From positions 1 to 4,788 of the IMG/VR virus record IMGVR_UViG_2693429642_000015: 4,788 nt of DNA; one strand, written 5' to 3'. Positions 1 through 3,220 of the stretch are shown here, piece by piece (position 1 is the stretch's first letter; the number at the start of each line of letters is the position of its first letter). The notes beneath the pieces were generated by a model. The model did no database searches and was not told the DNA's origin. It saw only the letters and a program-made list of their open reading frames with translations. The DNA comes from a virus. Its lineage: Duplodnaviria; Heunggongvirae; Uroviricota; Caudoviricetes. A program made the translations under genes and the position numbers.

Positions 1-128
1 ACCTTCTGACATTCACGGTCAACCAGGCTAACACGTAGAACATGCCCTGCAGGCGTGGTGTACCACTGACCCGGACGAGGACAACGGAAAGTATGATTGG
101 TAAACCGTTTGAAAATATTCCGGATCAT
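1..128 (-). CDS. Partial CDS (5' end only, continues past window start); hypothetical early-operon protein
   Basis: ATG at 128..126 on the minus strand overlaps the TGA stop (127..125) of the upstream Rha-family gene (plus-strand 125-128 = tcat, i.e. ATGA). The frame then stays open for 42 codons to the window edge (MIRNIFKRFTNHTFRCPRPGQWYTTPAGHVLRVSLVDRECQK...). Too short to appear in the supplied ORF track. Product not recognisable from this fragment. Confidence 0.35.
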   Translation of the reverse strand, partial: MIRNIFKRFTNHTFRCPRPGQWYTTPAGHVLRVSLVDRECQK

Positions 129-985
129 TTGCGCCCCCTTACCTCTGAAGGGTTCAGCGACAAATTTATGAGACTGGCCAGTAGCGCCGCGTCGTTGATG
201 CGGTCATACAGACTTACAGCCAGCGGGGATTCGGCTTTTGCCAACATGGGATAAAGCTGCTGCAGCCAGACCTTGTGGATTACCGACAGGTGGGAGTAAA
301 GCACGCTGGCGTTATCTGCGGCATCGCTCAGCGTGGATGGCTTTGAAAGCAGTTTTTCCATCTGGTTAAAGGCATTTATGTATGCCTCTTTGAACCGGGC
401 AGCACGTTTACCAGTGAAGCCCATGGCAAGAAACGCAAAACCGTCGCGGGTGATTTGGTAACAAGGGAGTTTGCGGCCTGATGCGTCGGTGTATTCACTT
501 AACACAAAATTGTGTTCAGTAAATTCAGCGGAACATTCGAGGTTTCTAATTCTATCTAAAACCCGCTCATGCCGTTTAGTAAAGTAATTAGCTACTGCAA
601 GAGATGTGGTGACAACGCGACCATTGATAATCGTGATTTCAGGGTGAGATTGGGTTGGGAGAGTAGTCATGGTGACAGCCCCTATGTTGAATTCAATGAA
701 CTCACCACCAAGGCTTTCCACGACCATATAGGTGGTGAGACGTACAGGGGTGGAAATACCGGTCAACATAGAACCCGGCCCAACCGAAGTTGGCCCTGCA
801 CGCCCCACCATAATTTGGGCGTAACGATGCTCATGACACGAAAAAACCGCATGAGCGCGGTTGTGCTCTATATTGAATTTCGGGTTTCCACGCCCGGCCC
901 CCGCTTTATAAGGTGCCTGAGCAGTGTAACGTCCCGGAATTGCAGAATCAATATGCAAACGGTTATTTGCCGTTAAACTATTCAT
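125..985 (-). CDS. Rha-family phage regulatory protein (Rha-like domain at residues ~106-190); 286 aa as drawn, alternative start at 670 would give 181 aa
   Basis: The 286-aa ORF is in the supplied track. The segment MTTLPTQSHPEITIINGRVVTTSLAVANYFTKRHERVLDRIRNL... matches, from memory, the characteristic N-terminus of Rha-family proteins (Pfam Phage_pRha-like). The ATG at 985..983 overlaps the TGA stop of the upstream CII-like gene (plus-strand 982-985 = tcat). The internal Met at 670..668 is preceded by a G-rich SD-like stretch (AGGGG, about 8 nt upstream) and begins exactly where Rha proteins normally begin. The upstream 105 codons (Gly/Pro/Arg/His-rich) are unrecognisable. Confidence 0.7.
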   Translation of the reverse strand: MNSLTANNRLHIDSAIPGRYTAQAPYKAGAGRGNPKFNIEHNRAHAVFSCHEHRYAQIMVGRAGPTSVGPGSMLTGISTPVRLTTYMVVESLGGEFIEFNIGAVTMTTLPTQSHPEITIINGRVVTTSLAVANYFTKRHERVLDRIRNLECSAEFTEHNFVLSEYTDASGRKLPCYQITRDGFAFLAMGFTGKRAARFKEAYINAFNQMEKLLSKPSTLSDAADNASVLYSHLSVIHKVWLQQLYPMLAKAESPLAVSLYDRINDAALLASLINLSLNPSEVRGRK

Positions 986-1551
986 GCGTTAGTTTCTCCA
1001 CAACCAGAAGCAATCGACGCCACGACGCCCGGAGCTGCACACTCGCGGGCGTTACTCTTTTCTGGAGCGCAGAAGATTTTGTAGACCAGTGCTGCATGCT
1101 CCTGGAGCTTCGAAATTGAAAGATACAGTTCGTCGTTAATTGCTGTTTTCTCATGCGGTTCCACTACCCCATCTTCGATTGCCGAACGAATCTGCTTTGA
1201 GTAACTCCCGATCTGTTCGATGACTTCCAGCAGACGCTGGTTAATATCGGCGTTGTCCACATCCTCGACGTCAGGAAGAGACACAAAGACGCCATTTGCA
1301 GACTGCGCCACAGCGTCAGCAATGAAGTGAGTTCCACCAGCACGTTGTAAAATCATTGCCCATCCCAGCGGGAAAATCTGATCGCCATCGGCACGAAGGC
1401 GATTGAATAAAGCGTTCTCTGTTACATCCAGCCACTCAGCAGCTTCAGCGTAACCCCCCGGCAACGCCGCGATAGTTTTTCTGACAGCTTTCACGTACCA
1501 CTCAGGCTGTTTTTCTACTTTCCAGTGATGCTTACCCACGGTTAGCCTCAT
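982..1551 (-). CDS. CII-like early regulatory protein (phage 186 CII / CP76-type or YdaT-position protein)
   Basis: 189-aa ORF in the supplied track, immediately downstream of the Cro-like gene on the same strand, which is the cII position. The segment ENALFNRLRADGDQIFPLGWAMIL resembles, from memory, the HTH region of phage 186 CII-type regulators (…LRNKLNPDQPH…). The ATG at 1551 has a weak SD; an in-frame GTG four codons downstream has a GAGG SD at 6 nt spacing, so the exact start is uncertain. Being a real CDS is more certain than the family assignment. Confidence 0.6.
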   Translation of the reverse strand: MRLTVGKHHWKVEKQPEWYVKAVRKTIAALPGGYAEAAEWLDVTENALFNRLRADGDQIFPLGWAMILQRAGGTHFIADAVAQSANGVFVSLPDVEDVDNADINQRLLEVIEQIGSYSKQIRSAIEDGVVEPHEKTAINDELYLSISKLQEHAALVYKIFCAPEKSNARECAAPGVVASIASGCGETNA

Positions 1552-1582: not shown

Positions 1583-1783
1583 TTAATCTTTCGGATAGAT
1601 ATCCGGTCTTAAGTCAGATTTCGTAATTGCACCTGACGTGCATTGCTCAAGTTTTTTAGCCAGCACAAAACTGGCTTTTTTATAACCATTGAAAACCAGC
1701 CGTAAGTAGCCTGGTGTTGAGCCAACTTTTCCGGCCAACTCGCCCTGCTGTTCTTTGGTTAAAGAGTCCCAATACGCTTTCAT
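1583..1783 (-). CDS. Cro-like small HTH regulator (YdaS-like), 66 aa
   Basis: Minus-strand ORF; the track gives a start at 1807, but the second Met at 1783 (MKAYWDSLTKEQQGELAGKVGSTPGYLRLVFNGYKKASFVLAKKLEQCTSGAITKSDLRPDIYPKD) is preceded by a strong SD (GGAGG, minus strand 1798..1794, about 10 nt upstream). Small size, HTH-like middle segment and C-terminal LRPDI motif recall Rac YdaS / Cro-like proteins. It is divergent from the CI-type repressor gene, the classic cro position. Confidence 0.7.
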   Translation of the reverse strand: MKAYWDSLTKEQQGELAGKVGSTPGYLRLVFNGYKKASFVLAKKLEQCTSGAITKSDLRPDIYPKD

Positions 1784-1788
1784 ACAAT

Positions 1789-1807
1789 ATGTACCTCCAA
1801 TATACAT
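1789..1807. promoter_or_regulatory. Candidate operator OR-a (ATGTACC-TCCAA-TATACAT), overlapping the Cro-like gene SD/start region
   Basis: 7-5-7 imperfect inverted repeat whose half-sites (ATGTACC / ATGTATA) match those of the perfect palindrome at 1839-1857 and the PL-associated sites at 2593-2631. A weak minus-strand promoter candidate (TTTAAG 1833..1828, 16-nt spacer, TAGTAT 1811..1806) would place this site at the PR-like -10/TSS. Confidence 0.45.
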
Positions 1808-1838: not shown

Positions 1839-1857
1839 TTGTACCCTATCGGTACAA
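1839..1857. promoter_or_regulatory. Candidate operator OR-b: perfect palindrome TTGTACC-CTATC-GGTACAA
   Basis: Perfect 7-bp inverted repeat with a 5-bp spacer, read directly from the sequence, located in the divergent repressor/cro intergenic region. Same half-site family as the sites at 1789-1807 and 2593-2631. Confidence 0.6.
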
Positions 1858-1873: not shown

Positions 1874-2548
1874 ATGAAAACAGTCCATGACATCCGGCGG
1901 TCTAACGCCAGAAAACTGAGAGATGGTGTTGGCGGGAATTCTTCCTTTGCCACCATGATTGATCGCGAGCCAACCCAGACCAGCAGGTTTATGGGAGATG
2001 GTGCTACTAAAAATATCGGTGACAGCATGGCACGGCACATCGAAAAATGTTTCGACCTGCCTGTCGGATGGCTTGATCAAGAACACCAGACAACAAACAT
2101 CACAAAAAAACCTGATGTTTCAATTACTAACAAACAAATAACGTTAGTCCCTGTCATATCATGGGTACAGGCCGGAGCATGGAAAGAAGTTGGCTATTCT
2201 GAGGTTGATTTGAGCACAGCAGAAACTTATCCCTGCCCTGTACCCTGTGGCGAAATGACTTATATCTTGCGGGTGATTGGTGATTCAATGATTGATGAGT
2301 ACCGCCCGGGAGACATGATTTTTGTAGATCCTGAAGTCCCTGCCTGCCACGGTGACGACGTTATTGCATTGATGCACGATACAGGCGAAACCACCTTTAA
2401 GCGGTTGATAGAAGATGGAACACAGCGTTACCTCAAAGCATTAAACCCAAACTGGCCTGAACCTTACATTAAGATCAACGGTAATTGCTCTATAATTGGC
2501 ACAGTAATTTTCTCAGGAAAACCAAGAAGATACAAAATAAAGGCCTAA
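1874..2548 (+). CDS. cI: CI-type prophage repressor: N-terminal DNA-binding (HTH-like) domain plus C-terminal S24 (LexA/CI-like) autopeptidase domain
   Basis: 224-aa ORF in the track. The C-terminal region VIGDSMIDEYRPGDMIFVDPEVPACHGDDVIALMHDTGETTFKRLIEDGTQRYLKALNPNWP...GTVIFSG aligns by eye with the lambda CI / LexA catalytic domain (GDSM serine nucleophile, TFKRL lysine). The linker motif VQAGAW (Ala100-Gly101, nt 2171-2176) matches the lambda CI Ala-Gly autocleavage context VQAGMF. Divergent from the Cro-like gene and followed by an intrinsic terminator. Confidence 0.85.
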   Translation: MKTVHDIRRSNARKLRDGVGGNSSFATMIDREPTQTSRFMGDGATKNIGDSMARHIEKCFDLPVGWLDQEHQTTNITKKPDVSITNKQITLVPVISWVQAGAWKEVGYSEVDLSTAETYPCPVPCGEMTYILRVIGDSMIDEYRPGDMIFVDPEVPACHGDDVIALMHDTGETTFKRLIEDGTQRYLKALNPNWPEPYIKINGNCSIIGTVIFSGKPRRYKIKA

Positions 2549-2586: not shown

Positions 2587-2614
2587 TTGACAATGTACCC
2601 TTGAGATACATAAT
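2587..2614 (+). promoter_or_regulatory. PL-like sigma70 promoter (early-left promoter)
   Basis: TTGACA (2587-2592, perfect -35), 16-bp spacer, CATAAT (2609-2614; 5/6 to TATAAT). Predicted TSS about 2621. Interdigitated with operator-like repeats, the arrangement expected for a repressor-controlled early promoter. Confidence 0.6.
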
Positions 2615-2631
2615 GTATCTAAAAGAAACAT
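2593..2631. promoter_or_regulatory. Tandem candidate operators OL-a (ATGTACC-CTTGA-GATACAT, 2593-2611) and OL-b (ATGTATC-TAAAA-GAAACAT, 2613-2631)
   Basis: Two adjacent 7-5-7 inverted repeats with the same half-site family as the OR sites. The junction forms a perfect palindrome GATACAT-A-ATGTATC (2605-2619) spanning the -10 hexamer. OL-a lies in the promoter spacer and OL-b covers the -10/TSS. Confidence 0.5.
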
Positions 2632-3097
2632 GTCACAGGCAAGATTAAACAAAATTTGGTTGTAACACGGCGTATGGCACATGCGTCGTTAGCGGTCTGG
2701 GGACGTTAAAGGGGACAATCCACTCCTTGCTCGGGCAAACAAACCAGGTAGCCGGAATGTGCAAGTCAATGAGGATGCTGATAAGACGCCTAACCAGCGT
2801 GGCGGTTCGGTTTGACACCTGGGAAGAGACCAGGGTGCAACGATGAGGGCATTTATGGAACCGCGACAAAGTGTGGTGCCGTAACTGGCTAAGTGCTCTC
2901 AGCGTTGTGGTGAATGCGCAGGCTGATGCACGAAAGACATTGCAGCTATTGCGGAAAAGAGCTGTTCGGCGGGGCAATTAAACGCCCGTGAGAGTCTGAA
3001 ATAACCGCAAGCCGGAGATCAGCATCGGTCACCACAGCAGCCACTGCTTTGGCGGTACCAGTTTGTACACTTGCTTCCGGCTGGTACCGCTCTTTTT
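2621..3097 (+). ncRNA. Candidate untranslated early-left transcript or long structured leader (about 480 nt, no credible ORF) between the PL-like promoter and a strong terminator
   Basis: From the predicted TSS to the terminator, stops occur in all three plus frames; the longest ATG-initiated plus-strand ORF is 29 aa, and others are 11-25 aa without good SDs. The only track ORF here (minus 2645..2977) has a TTG start, no Met and a low-complexity Arg-rich translation. GC is about 54% by hand count versus about 40% in the adjacent rdgC-like gene. Several local hairpins are visible (e.g. 2817-2823/2831-2838, 2970-2988). Transcript status is inferred, not demonstrated. Confidence 0.3.
3051..3097 (+). 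terminator. Strong rho-independent terminator (tL1-like) upstream of the rdgC-like gene
   Basis: Perfect 10-bp stem GCGGTACCAG (3052-3061) / CTGGTACCGC (3081-3090) enclosing a 19-nt loop, followed directly by TCTTTTT (3091-3097). Confidence 0.65.
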
Positions 3098-3220
3098 ACA
3101 AAACAGAGAAGAGCATCACCGGACGACGGGCTCATAACCCAATCCACCCGGGCGGCTGCCACCGCAGGTGTTCTTCTCTGTTTTGTGGAGAAACTAATAT
3201 CTTGTGCAGAGGAAAATAGA

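Follow-up and report, generated by a model that had tools for sequence, protein, structure and literature searches.

The "Ash" extension of a prophage Rha gene is a probable RNA immunity cassette lying within an open reading frame

Does the open reading frame that precedes the Rha domain in this stretch of viral DNA (the window, by which we mean all of its 4,788 nt) encode a further protein domain, or is it open for some other reason? The frame of the Rha-family protein extends upstream of an internal methionine, Met670, by exactly 105 codons (315 nt, region 671..985) and begins with an ATG that overlaps the TGA of the CII-like gene to form an ATGA; the initial annotation had pointed out both the extension and the overlap, and the ORF list and the sequence confirm them. 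The gene upstream is a CII-like regulator of the YmfL family (Pfam Phage_CP76, 52 bits; NCBIfam YmfL NF041471, 169 bits; phrog_101, CII-like). A GGAG situated 10 nt 5' of ATG 985 completes a GGAG-10 nt-ATGA junction spanning 999..982, from which a translational coupling of the CII-like gene to ATG 985 appears plausible, and PGAP places the gene start at this ATG in a relative with 100% identity (L001).

The Rha domain proper lies, as had been perceived at the outset, downstream of Met670, which has an SD of its own, an AGGGG 8 nt ahead of the ATG. The Pfam domain (PF09669, Phage_pRha; 108.1 bits, GA 29.9) occupies aa 126-211 of the long ORF, or aa 21-106 when counted from Met670, and the short form is recognized by TIGR02681 (102.2 bits, cut-off 45.95). 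Mismatches to its relatives pile up at third codon positions (712/571/1853 over the three positions). The internal Met670 is the start at which Rha is regulated, and at the other end of the gene its TGA (127..125) shares bases with the ATG of the gene that follows. The PHROG relatives of the Rha product carry anti-repressor labels. The extension differs in composition from this protein: Gly, Pro, Arg and His make up 29% of its residues vs 17% of the remainder, a bias that had been remarked upon together with a high GC content; the latter is raised only mildly (50.5% vs 46% for the window).

The extension had been said to match nothing recognizable, and this proved to be incorrect, since the Rfam families isrK and C4, Pfam Phage_ASH and several PHROGs all match it. 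We conclude that the 315 nt 5' of Met670 are an RNA immunity/anti-immunity cassette of the P4 / Gifsy-1 / P1 type and not a protein domain; the two curated RNA families and their target sites account for it (Table 1). Among the options offered initially, that of a separate element or a non-coding region was essentially right, in the form of a cassette of RNA genes.

Table 1. Coordinates of the genes, RNA elements and signals of the locus within the window
Feature	Position	Strand	Details
CII-like / YmfL-family regulator gene	982..1551	(-)	189 aa; stop TGA 984..982
SD-like GGAG and ATG of the long eta-like ORF	983..999	(-)	GGAG 999..996, ATG 985..983; from the sequence
Long frame-0 ORF ("Ash" + Rha)	125..985	(-)	286 aa; ORF list
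Candidate constitutive promoter	923..951	(-)	-35 TTGATT 951..946, 17-nt spacer, -10 TACACT 928..923
IsrK / P4-seqA-type sRNA	840..916	(-)	Rfam RF01394, 57.7 bits (GA 50), E 7e-11
Upstream C4 target a1	891..885	(-)	GUGGAAA; inside IsrK-like RNA
Upstream C4 target b1	876..865	(-)	UCAAUAUAGAGC; inside IsrK-like RNA
C4 / P4-CI-type antisense RNA	728..815	(-)	Rfam RF01695, 82.4 bits (GA 45), E 9e-16
C4 loop b'	774..763	(-)	GUUCUAUGUUGA
C4 loop a'	756..750	(-)	UUUCCAC
C4 operator RNA	671..727	(-)	a2, 9-nt element, b2, local hairpin
Downstream C4 target a2	721..715	(-)	GUGGAAA
9-nt element, complementary to 3' strand of C4 stem	709..701	(-)	GGUGGUGAG
Downstream C4 target b2	690..680	(-)	UCAACAUAGGG; overlaps SD AGGGG 683..679
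Rha-family regulator, short C4-controlled form	125..670	(-)	181 aa; ATG 670..668

The long ORF runs, in frame with Rha, through the promoter, the IsrK-like RNA, its terminator, the C4 RNA and the operator. The candidate promoter would have its transcription start near 916; it is unchanged throughout alignment A1, the diverged L003 included, and it aligns with the position of the Gifsy-1 isrK promoter and with P4 PLE. It fits 8 of the 12 consensus positions and was therefore missed by a scan requiring 9 of 12. The IsrK-like RNA, whose folding energy alone is unremarkable (z 0.28), ends at an intrinsic terminator (hairpin 862..845 followed by a U run, from a terminator scan). Its a1 and b1 targets were recovered both by their complementarity to C4 and by a repeat finder; the c4-a1b1 model RF03163 reaches only 18.8 bits, under its GA of 46.7, but the two sequences are nonetheless present and C4-complementary. 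The C4 match covers the full length of its model. In the operator a local hairpin sequesters AUG 670, and Rha starts 9 nt past b2 with no separate ORF in between. Mature C4-family RNA is cut from a longer precursor by RNase P in P1 and P4, and the RNAs of the window may likewise be processed; the candidate promoter is presumed to be active. A search for tRNA and tmRNA genes gave none.

The identity of these RNAs is borne out by their structure, their complementarities and their covariation. The C4 RNA (MFE -44.5 kcal/mol, z -5.2) folds into the Rfam consensus, a long basal stem with two hairpins. Across 53 representatives 99.4% of the cells are paired and 16 of the 27 pairs have changed on both sides, values reached in none of 500 shuffles; in slid controls the paired share is 32-46%, some columns being fixed by the search pattern, and one pattern match that was due to chance (L237) was left out of the structure count. 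The duplex of b' with b2 (-17.8 kcal/mol) covers the SD of Rha, and a' pairs with a2 at -10.2 kcal/mol. A C4 RNA gains about 7 kcal/mol when it pairs with the targets of its own cluster instead of those of other clusters, and in all clusters examined a1/a'/a2 and b1/b'/b2 covary three ways, with at least 11 a specificities; the repeat finder had located the a and b target copies independently. From these complementarities, C4 would be expected to repress Rha.

How, then, should the protein matches be read? That the extension is a real folded "Ash" domain, fused to Rha and possessing a biochemical function of its own, is the view embodied in PF10554, the PHROGs and PGAP. Phage_ASH is matched above its threshold (GA 26) by the extension alone (33.5 bits) and by the full ORF (38.9 bits, aa 20-116), the PHROG families include it, the long ORF is the form given in PGAP annotation and by phage depositors, and the literature on Stx phages contains Rha/Ash domain proteins (PMC8951638). 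We nevertheless regard such a domain, which had been proposed initially as a novel fusion, as very improbable. Codon-level conservation, which had been suggested as a check, is absent when the extension is compared with its relatives: mismatches are spread evenly over the codon positions (618/726/591), without the third-position bias seen in Rha and in the CII-like gene (83/85/430), and the variability of C4 has no 3-periodicity (entropy by codon position 0.83/0.86/0.85). The extension is not under selection at the amino-acid level, and its variation tracks RNA pairing and target complementarity instead. Moreover, the same "domain" stands before unrelated products, L003 is annotated as frameshifted, and a search of the extension against NCBIfam found no model match. 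The historical "cI protein" ORF of P4 gives the same Pfam Ash match, located exactly over the Rfam C4 match that marks the CI RNA. The family owes its name to the P4 ORF, which likewise scores above GA, and P4 epsilon falls in another family. All this indicates that what PF10554 captures is an isrK+C4+operator RNA locus in conceptual translation, possibly a transit-only one, and not a domain under selection for its amino acids.

The other strand deserves a brief consideration, because open plus-strand frames had also been noted here, and a plus-strand ORF (569..976, 135 aa) is indeed almost as long as the region. An opposite-strand gene, an origin of replication or an array of protein-binding sites (the last two as had been suggested for the non-coding case) is the least credible of all the readings and can hardly be entertained. 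The plus-strand ORF has no Pfam family match; the repeats are a/b target copies and RNA stems only, with no iterons or tandem arrays; an AT-rich dip is absent; and the terminator and the covariance-model matches are on the minus strand.

The openness of the frame is a separate matter. The caution that an open frame alone is weak evidence was well founded: judged on the window alone, in dinucleotide-preserving shuffles this frame is stop-free in 126/5000 (2.5%) and any of the six in 471/5000 (9.4%). The open frame is thus weakly significant within the window, and it is the comparative data that make it significant. A frame-agnostic DNA pattern yielded 240 loci in 49 clusters, which are themselves related by descent; 34 of the 49 have no stop in frame 0, 12 none in frame 1 and 3 none in frame 2. 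Inside C4, frame 0 has 7 stops where 20.6 are expected. Phase was measured by the a1-to-core distance, the a1-to-a2 distance being a poor measure because of small compensating indels between C4 and b2. In the open class, which is defined by the absence of stops and is for that reason partly enriched for in-phase spacers, the a1-to-C4 spacing takes 15 distinct values and yet falls in a single residue class modulo 3 in 32 of 34 clusters, vs a 7/6/2 split in the closed class; over all 49 clusters, without conditioning, the distinct spacer lengths split 15/6/3 by phase. The ATG after b2, which every cluster has between +117 and +127 relative to the C4 core, is in phase in 23/34 open clusters vs 5/15 closed ones. 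An SD+ATGA junction occurs in 11/34 of the open-frame clusters with 8 unrelated types of upstream gene, P4 (ORF88/alpA) and 9 other clusters having the same junction as the window. Downstream, the frame carries on into Rha, Bro-N, epsilon-like or Kil-sized products, which indicates that the cassette is portable. The frame and its coupled start have been maintained in the evolution of these loci.

A simpler account would retain the cassette as a non-coding leader, its frame open by descent or chance, with Rha translated from Met670 only and ATG 985 unused. Taken for the window alone, the shuffles leave room for it; the intrinsic terminator falls within the proposed long ORF; amino-acid-level selection is absent from the extension; and stops in this frame occur in 15/49 clusters that function with them, in P1, the type system, and, just upstream of C4, in Gifsy-1. 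The RNA system can therefore work without read-through translation, against which the long SD-ATG spacing at 985 (10 nt) also counts. We consider this account unlikely, however, since the spacers stay in one residue class, the downstream start is in phase more often in the open class than in the closed one, C4 is depleted of stops and SD+ATGA starts recur beside unrelated upstream genes. In addition, P4 eta is reported as translated in a later summary of the P4 work (PMC10111431), and the window has suffered a 291-nt deletion that left the frame intact. This in-frame deletion was not seen in any relative examined: its junction is absent from 247 loci (all but the P1 locus) and from the best eight of the listed E. 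coli matches, all eight of which carry the 291-nt block. The copy in the window may come from a prophage in decay. The initial supposition that the frame merely happens to be open was probably wrong, because diverse relatives share not only the open frame but also the phase of the spacer, the downstream start in phase and the SD+ATGA coupling; evolution probably keeps both the frame and the coupled start, and the frame is not open by accident.

The reading that we prefer, and hold to be probable, is that of an RNA cassette set in a maintained frame whose read-through translation overrides the RNA switch, as in P4. A later summary of the P4 work describes eta as coupled to an upstream alpA homologue, with CI and seqA inside eta, and states that translation of Eta from upstream-initiated transcripts prevents termination, the termination so prevented being the CI-dependent (Rho-dependent) one (PMC10111431). 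By analogy, in the lysogen the internal constitutive promoter (about 951..923) would give a short IsrK/seqA-like RNA that stops at the terminator (862..840), and transcripts reading through it would yield the C4/CI-like antisense RNA (815..728). The a' and b' loops of the latter would pair with a2 and b2 right ahead of Rha; as b2 overlaps the SD, the Met670 start would be blocked on these transcripts and the downstream genes held off, while a1/b1 inside IsrK could compete for C4. Upon loss of the repressor, the early rightward operon would be transcribed from farther upstream, and ribosomes ending the CII-like gene could re-initiate at ATG 985 and translate across the terminator, C4 and the operator. 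Such translation would protect the upstream-initiated transcript from both C4 and termination, and would yield a long Ash-Rha isoform. That the long ORF is really translated, and that this counteracts termination, are predictions drawn here by analogy with P4.

A second precedent suggests another entry point for the ribosomes. In Gifsy-1, orf45 begins at the AUG on the C4 5' edge, is translated and is required for the translation of anrP, and IsrK, acting in trans, activates it, as experiments on that locus indicate (PMC4825925). Translation in the window could similarly start at AUG 811..809, be activated in trans by IsrK and proceed into Rha, the segment 985..812 being irrelevant. This AUG, at the 5' edge of C4 and in frame 0, equals the orf45 start and has the identical context (AAUUAUGGUGGGGCGU), and an ATG occupies this place in 47/49 clusters, in frame 0. 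Against this, the AUG is within the conserved basal stem of C4 and its conservation may be structural, many closed-class loci have stops 9-30 nt after it, and the window is without the orf45 stop, its frame being fused to Rha; the conservation of the frame upstream of C4 and the ATGA coupling would also be left unexplained. We retain it as a possible but rather doubtful alternative, one that is compatible with the P4-like reading preferred here.

Taken jointly, the P4-like reading and the census raise the possibility that IsrK/C4 genes embedded in a translated frame are a general design and not a peculiarity of P4, a proposition for and against which we see the chances as about even. In some two-thirds of C4 loci, among them those of lambdoid prophages like the present one, selection may keep one frame open and in phase with both neighbors while leaving the amino acids unconstrained. 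If this were true, ribosome transit itself would be the anti-immunity signal that frees upstream-initiated early transcripts from RNA repression and termination, the "Ash domain" would be a by-product peptide, and the long Ash-Rha would mark the induced state and the short Rha the leaky state.

The value of the result is mainly that of a correction of annotation; the kind of cassette is already known from the RNA immunity of P4, Gifsy-1 and P1. Out of 5426 complete E. coli genomes, 2123 contain a match to the window DNA, and the closest phage relatives of this DNA include Stx-converting phages. In the Rha/Ash "transcriptional regulators" annotated in prophages of E. coli, the "Ash" portion is best understood as a regulatory cassette of RNAs, and the start sites, domain architectures and functional guesses attached to these proteins need revision, an example being the replication role proposed in Eru-type Stx phages (PMC8951638). 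Situated after the CII-like gene and before the remainder of the early-right operon, the cassette would act as a checkpoint at the level of RNA. Its exchangeable a/b specificities (at least 11 a-types) would define immunity groups, which bear on prophage induction and on the cross-immunity of co-resident prophages. It is also a clean case of simultaneous constraint by a structured RNA and an open frame, with the lesson that an open frame and a Pfam match are no proof of a protein domain.

Three known systems allow the cassette to be placed. The immI locus of P1/P7 (c4 - icd - ant1/ant2) shares with the window the C4 family, the placement of a1/b1 ahead of the RNA and of a2/b2 behind it, where b2 falls on the RBS of the first ORF, an Isr-like terminator hairpin between b1 and c4, and, in the curated P1 annotation, nested in-frame isoforms (ant1/ant2) and ATGA coupling within the operon. 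It differs in that stops in all three frames across a1..b2 leave the P1 cassette outside any ORF, a separate small icd ORF (absent between b2 and Rha in the window) precedes ant and is translationally coupled to it, the promoter carries a C1 operator, and the product is Ant instead of a Phage_pRha protein.

The Salmonella Gifsy-1 locus (isrK - orf45 (STnc1160) - anrP) resembles the window in its tandem of isrK and C4 with equal spacing and an aligned promoter, in the AUG at the C4 5' edge with its identical context and frame, and in that b2 is immediately followed by a regulated gene belonging to the Bro/antirepressor network. However, a stop two codons ahead of orf45 closes the Gifsy-1 frame, and the end of orf45 overlaps the start of anrP as ATGA; the frame of the window stays open all the way from the CII-like stop and continues into Rha, to which it is fused. 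AnrP, an ORF6N protein, showed no homology to this Rha when the two were compared. The Gifsy-1 locus adjoins antQ in the late region, away from the immunity region.

The P4 locus (PLE - seqA - cI RNA - seqC - kil in eta) has, like the window, a promoter, an isrK/seqA RNA with its terminator, a C4/CI RNA and a target over the RBS, all traversed by a long ORF (through seqA, CI and seqC; P4 frame 0: -333..+318) that is in frame with a short regulated ORF, overlaps the stop of the upstream gene in an ATGA and gives the same Pfam "Ash" translation. P4 is a satellite with alpA upstream, whereas here the host element is the early-right operon of a lambdoid prophage, with cro-like and CII/YmfL-like genes upstream and presumably a repressor-controlled promoter of the PR type in place of PLL. 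The regulated product of the window is a 181-aa Rha-family protein vs the 65-aa Kil, its a/b specificity sequences differ from those of P4, and its a1-to-C4 spacer is 84 nt shorter (-95 vs -179). With these differences, the long ORF of the window corresponds to P4 eta and the short Rha to P4 kil.

The window appears to be a lambdoid prophage's immunity region (see table). The ATG of the long ORF (985..983) overlaps the TGA of the CII-like gene (984..982) and has a GGAG 10 nt upstream; its first 105 codons (985..671) are free of stops, and the Pfam Rha domain (residues 126-211 of 286) begins just past an internal Met at 670, which is preceded by AGGGG 8 nt upstream. The open extension, the ATGA overlap and the internal Rha start with its own ribosome-binding sequence, all described in the initial annotation, are confirmed. 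Its caution that an open frame alone is weak evidence was also justified: this frame stays open in 2.5% of dinucleotide-preserving shuffles and any of the six in 9.4%, and a plus-strand ORF (569..976) overlaps the extension as well. The supposed GC-richness is real but mild (50.5% vs. 46% for the window). At its other end, the TGA that stops Rha (127..125, -) shares bases with the ATG (128..126) of the gene behind it, which exits the window, and the same is seen in the relative L001; ATGA coupling thus chains the CII-like gene to the long ORF and the long ORF to the gene after it.

Features of the immunity region and of the RNA cassette within the long ORF
Feature	Position	Strand	Remark
cI-like repressor, S24 peptidase	1874..2548	+	
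Cro/YdaS-like gene	1807..1583	-	opposite to repressor
CII/YmfL-family gene	1551..982	-	
Long ORF	985..125	-	286 aa
Candidate promoter	951..923	-	promoter-like sequence; -35 TTGATT, 17 nt, -10 TACACT
a1	891..885	-	GUGGAAA; upstream pair, within IsrK
b1	876..865	-	UCAAUAUAGAGC; upstream pair, within IsrK
Intrinsic terminator	862..840	-	AACCGCGCUCAUGCGGUUUUUU; at IsrK end
b'	774..763	-	12-nt C4 loop; complementary to b1 and b2
a'	756..750	-	single-stranded stretch after CCGGUA; complementary to a1 and a2
a2	721..715	-	GUGGAAA; downstream pair, between C4 and Met670
b2	690..680	-	UCAACAUAGGG; downstream pair, overlaps SD (683..679)

A palindrome, TTGTACCCTATCGGTACAA (1839..1857), separates the divergent repressor and cro-like genes, and related GTACC/GATAC half-sites (2596..2632) overlap a strong sigma70-like promoter (TTGACA-16-CATAAT, 2587..2614, +) directly after the repressor gene and its terminator; these are likely operators for the repressor at the rightward and leftward early promoters. 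Between this promoter and an RdgC-like gene lie some 600 nt (region 2587..3220) in which no credible ORF or Rfam match was found. The stretch has a folding z of -3.66 and contains a terminator-like hairpin with a U run (3052..3090) and a 25-bp stem (3098..3122 / 3162..3186). Of 5426 E. coli genomes, 2690 hold pieces of it, most of them unannotated; pieces are also present at 486 plasmid places, one of them on a P1-like phage-plasmid beside tRNA genes. The stretch may serve the leftward early operon as a long non-coding leader or RNA.

The initial annotation recognised nothing in the extension and considered that it might be a novel fused domain. Matches do exist: its translation scores above threshold against Pfam Phage_ASH and also matches several PHROG "regulator" families, and the long ORF is annotated as a gene by PGAP and by phage depositors. 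Nonetheless, the domain interpretation is rejected. The historical "cI gene product (AA 1-137)" ORF of P4 gives the same Ash match (59.7 bits), which sits exactly over the Rfam C4 match marking the CI RNA, and the isrK model matches P4 seqA. When codon-level conservation was checked against relatives, mismatches at codon positions 1/2/3 were flat in the extension (618 / 726 / 591), unlike those in the CII-like gene (83 / 85 / 430) and Rha (712 / 571 / 1853); within C4, a 3-periodicity of variability was sought and not found. Furthermore, this "domain" stands in front of products that are unrelated to one another (Rha, Bro-N, epsilon-like derepression proteins, Kil-sized peptides and unknowns), and in one relative the region is annotated as frameshifted. 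The P4 match, the flat codon positions and the unrelated products together indicate that the Ash match is the translation of an RNA locus. P4 epsilon, equated with Ash in one paper, falls in a different Pfam family.

What the extension does contain is almost certainly an RNA cassette. An Rfam scan returned isrK (RF01394; 916..840, -; 57.7 bits vs. a gathering score of 50), C4 antisense RNA (RF01695; 815..728, -; 82.4 bits vs. 45) and a sub-threshold c4-a1b1 match (929..877, 18.8 bits). The fold of the C4 segment agrees with the consensus of the family (-44.5 kcal/mol, z = -5.2), and the b'-b2 duplex is predicted at -17.8 kcal/mol. The promoter-like element aligns with the Gifsy-1 isrK promoter and P4 PLE and is unchanged even in a diverged relative. 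The suggestion that the region might be non-coding was therefore right in substance, but the origin or binding site proposed is replaced by RNA genes: a blind repeat finder returned no iteron-like repeats and recovered exactly the a1/b1 and a2/b2 target pairs.

Covariation of the target sites is already visible, three ways, in the differing specificities of the window (b' CUAUGUUGA, b2 UCAACAUAG) and of two relatives, L002 (b' CUUUGGUGA; b1 = b2 = UCACCAAAG) and L003 (a' GUGCAAA with a1, a2 UUUGCAC; b' CCGUUGAC with b1, b2 GUCAACGG). Two public collections were searched for the C4 core with a DNA pattern blind to reading frame. The 240 loci obtained (Enterobacterales, Pseudomonas, Aeromonas, Endozoicomonas and others) comprised 203 unique spans, which fell into 56 clusters at ~85% identity. 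All four sites were located in 49 clusters by complementarity to each cluster's own C4; among them the a sequence takes at least 11 forms and the b sequence many, and pairing with a cluster's own targets is ~7-8 kcal/mol better than with those of other clusters. Within C4, 99.4% of cells are paired across 53 representatives, with changes on both sides in 16 of 27 pairs, vs. just 32-46% of cells in slid controls.

A 9-nt element between a2 and b2, GGUGGUGAG (701..709, -), has its complement in the 3' strand of the C4 basal stem, CUCACCACC (731..739), and covaries with that strand across clusters (e.g. GGCGAUAGC / GCUAUCGCC in P4). In 38 of the 49 clusters, pairing with the element of that cluster reaches at least 8 nt (34% for cross pairs), which points to an alternative fold that the transcript may adopt before processing. 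Two viral contigs, L013 (3682, 4338) and L023 (9728, 11040), have two same-strand C4 cores, 656 and 1312 nt apart, and these are tandem RNA immunity cassettes.

Could the frame merely happen to be open, as the initial annotation allowed? Stops, spacer phase and coupled starts across the clusters make this improbable, although the clusters share common ancestry. Stops were counted from 20 nt upstream of a1 to the C4 end, in frames set relative to the C4 core; frame 0, that of the window's long ORF, is also P4's. Stop-free clusters number 34, 12 and 3 of 49 in frames 0, 1 and 2, and ungapped C4 has 7, 30 and 54 stops, against 20.6, 37.2 and 53.2 expected from independent column frequencies. The a1-to-C4-core distance takes 15 values (-175 to -85) in the 34 open clusters, yet 32 share one residue class mod 3, a figure partly enriched by defining "open" through the absence of stops; the 15 closed clusters divide 7/6/2. 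The ATG after b2, whose phase played no part in that definition (upstream span only), is in phase in 23/34 open vs. 5/15 closed clusters. In 11 of the 34, the frame-0 ORF opens at an ATG overlapping the TGA of an upstream gene (at least 60 aa), with SD-like GGAG/GGGAG 8-13 nt upstream, and these upstream genes are of eight unrelated kinds, including AlpA-like and CII/YmfL-like. That the frame is open and in phase in two thirds of diverse C4 loci, with no amino-acid-level constraint, may be new in quantitative terms.

Two C4 architectures can be distinguished: ORF-embedded (34/49 clusters, including P4 and the window) and free-standing (15/49). In the latter every relevant frame has stops, the spacer phase is arbitrary and so is that of the downstream start; several of these loci come from Pseudomonas genomes. 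The type system, P1 (L248 3256..3471), outside the 49 clusters, has stops in all three frames.

The window has its own peculiarity: it lacks a 291-nt (97-codon, in-frame) block of its nearest relatives, with flanks 100% identical. In the block (L001 3106..3395), which separates the YmfL-like gene from the isrK promoter, lies a DUF4222 gene of 60 aa, and the deletion (junction 955/956) ends just upstream of the -35. None of 247 fetched loci, the P1 locus not among them, has this junction, and the best eight E. coli matches listed for a junction-spanning query all carry the extra block.

These observations suggest how the locus may work. In the lysogen, the internal promoter would produce IsrK and C4, and C4 would cover the SD of Met670; given the complementarity and covariation, control of this start by C4 is probable. 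Upon derepression of the early-right promoter, ribosomes could re-initiate at ATG 985 and translate through the cassette, overriding both terminator and C4 and so permitting expression of Ash-Rha and of downstream genes. By analogy and from the frame statistics, such read-through translation is, on balance, favoured.

There are published precedents for this scheme. According to the summary of Forti et al. 1999 in Mageeney et al. (PMC10111431), P4 CI and seqA lie inside the eta ORF, eta translation prevents termination, and the truncated form, Kil, is translated on read-through only. In Gifsy-1, a 45-codon ORF is translated and is needed for translation of the downstream antirepressor-like anrP, and short IsrK activates this ORF in trans (PMC4825925). 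The present analysis places the start of that ORF at the AUG bordering the C4-like RNA on its 5' side, in the same frame. The window merges the two layouts: it has the same AUG (811..809) in frame, with no stop before Rha, and the frame is open back to the CII-like stop. P4 (L004 ~8510..8600, -) has ~80 extra nt before the CI RNA relative to the window and Gifsy-1 alignment; the stretch opens with a second AUUAUGGUGUGG motif and resembles a degenerate second copy of C4's 5' part.

Other phages, such as APSE (PMC7313666), have been noted to carry isrK and C4 in tandem, and P4 and PICIs to have CI embedded in a "Bro-network" gene. It follows from the data on C4 loci that what is called the "Ash domain" in the Rha/Ash proteins of E. 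coli and Stx prophages should be read as an RNA cassette. The window locus belongs to the Rfam isrK and C4 families. In its working it most resembles P4 immunity: in both, a short ORF is nested in a long one that has a coupled start. It has the a/b operator logic in common with P1 immI, whose icd and Ant it lacks, and the orf45 start in common with Gifsy-1.
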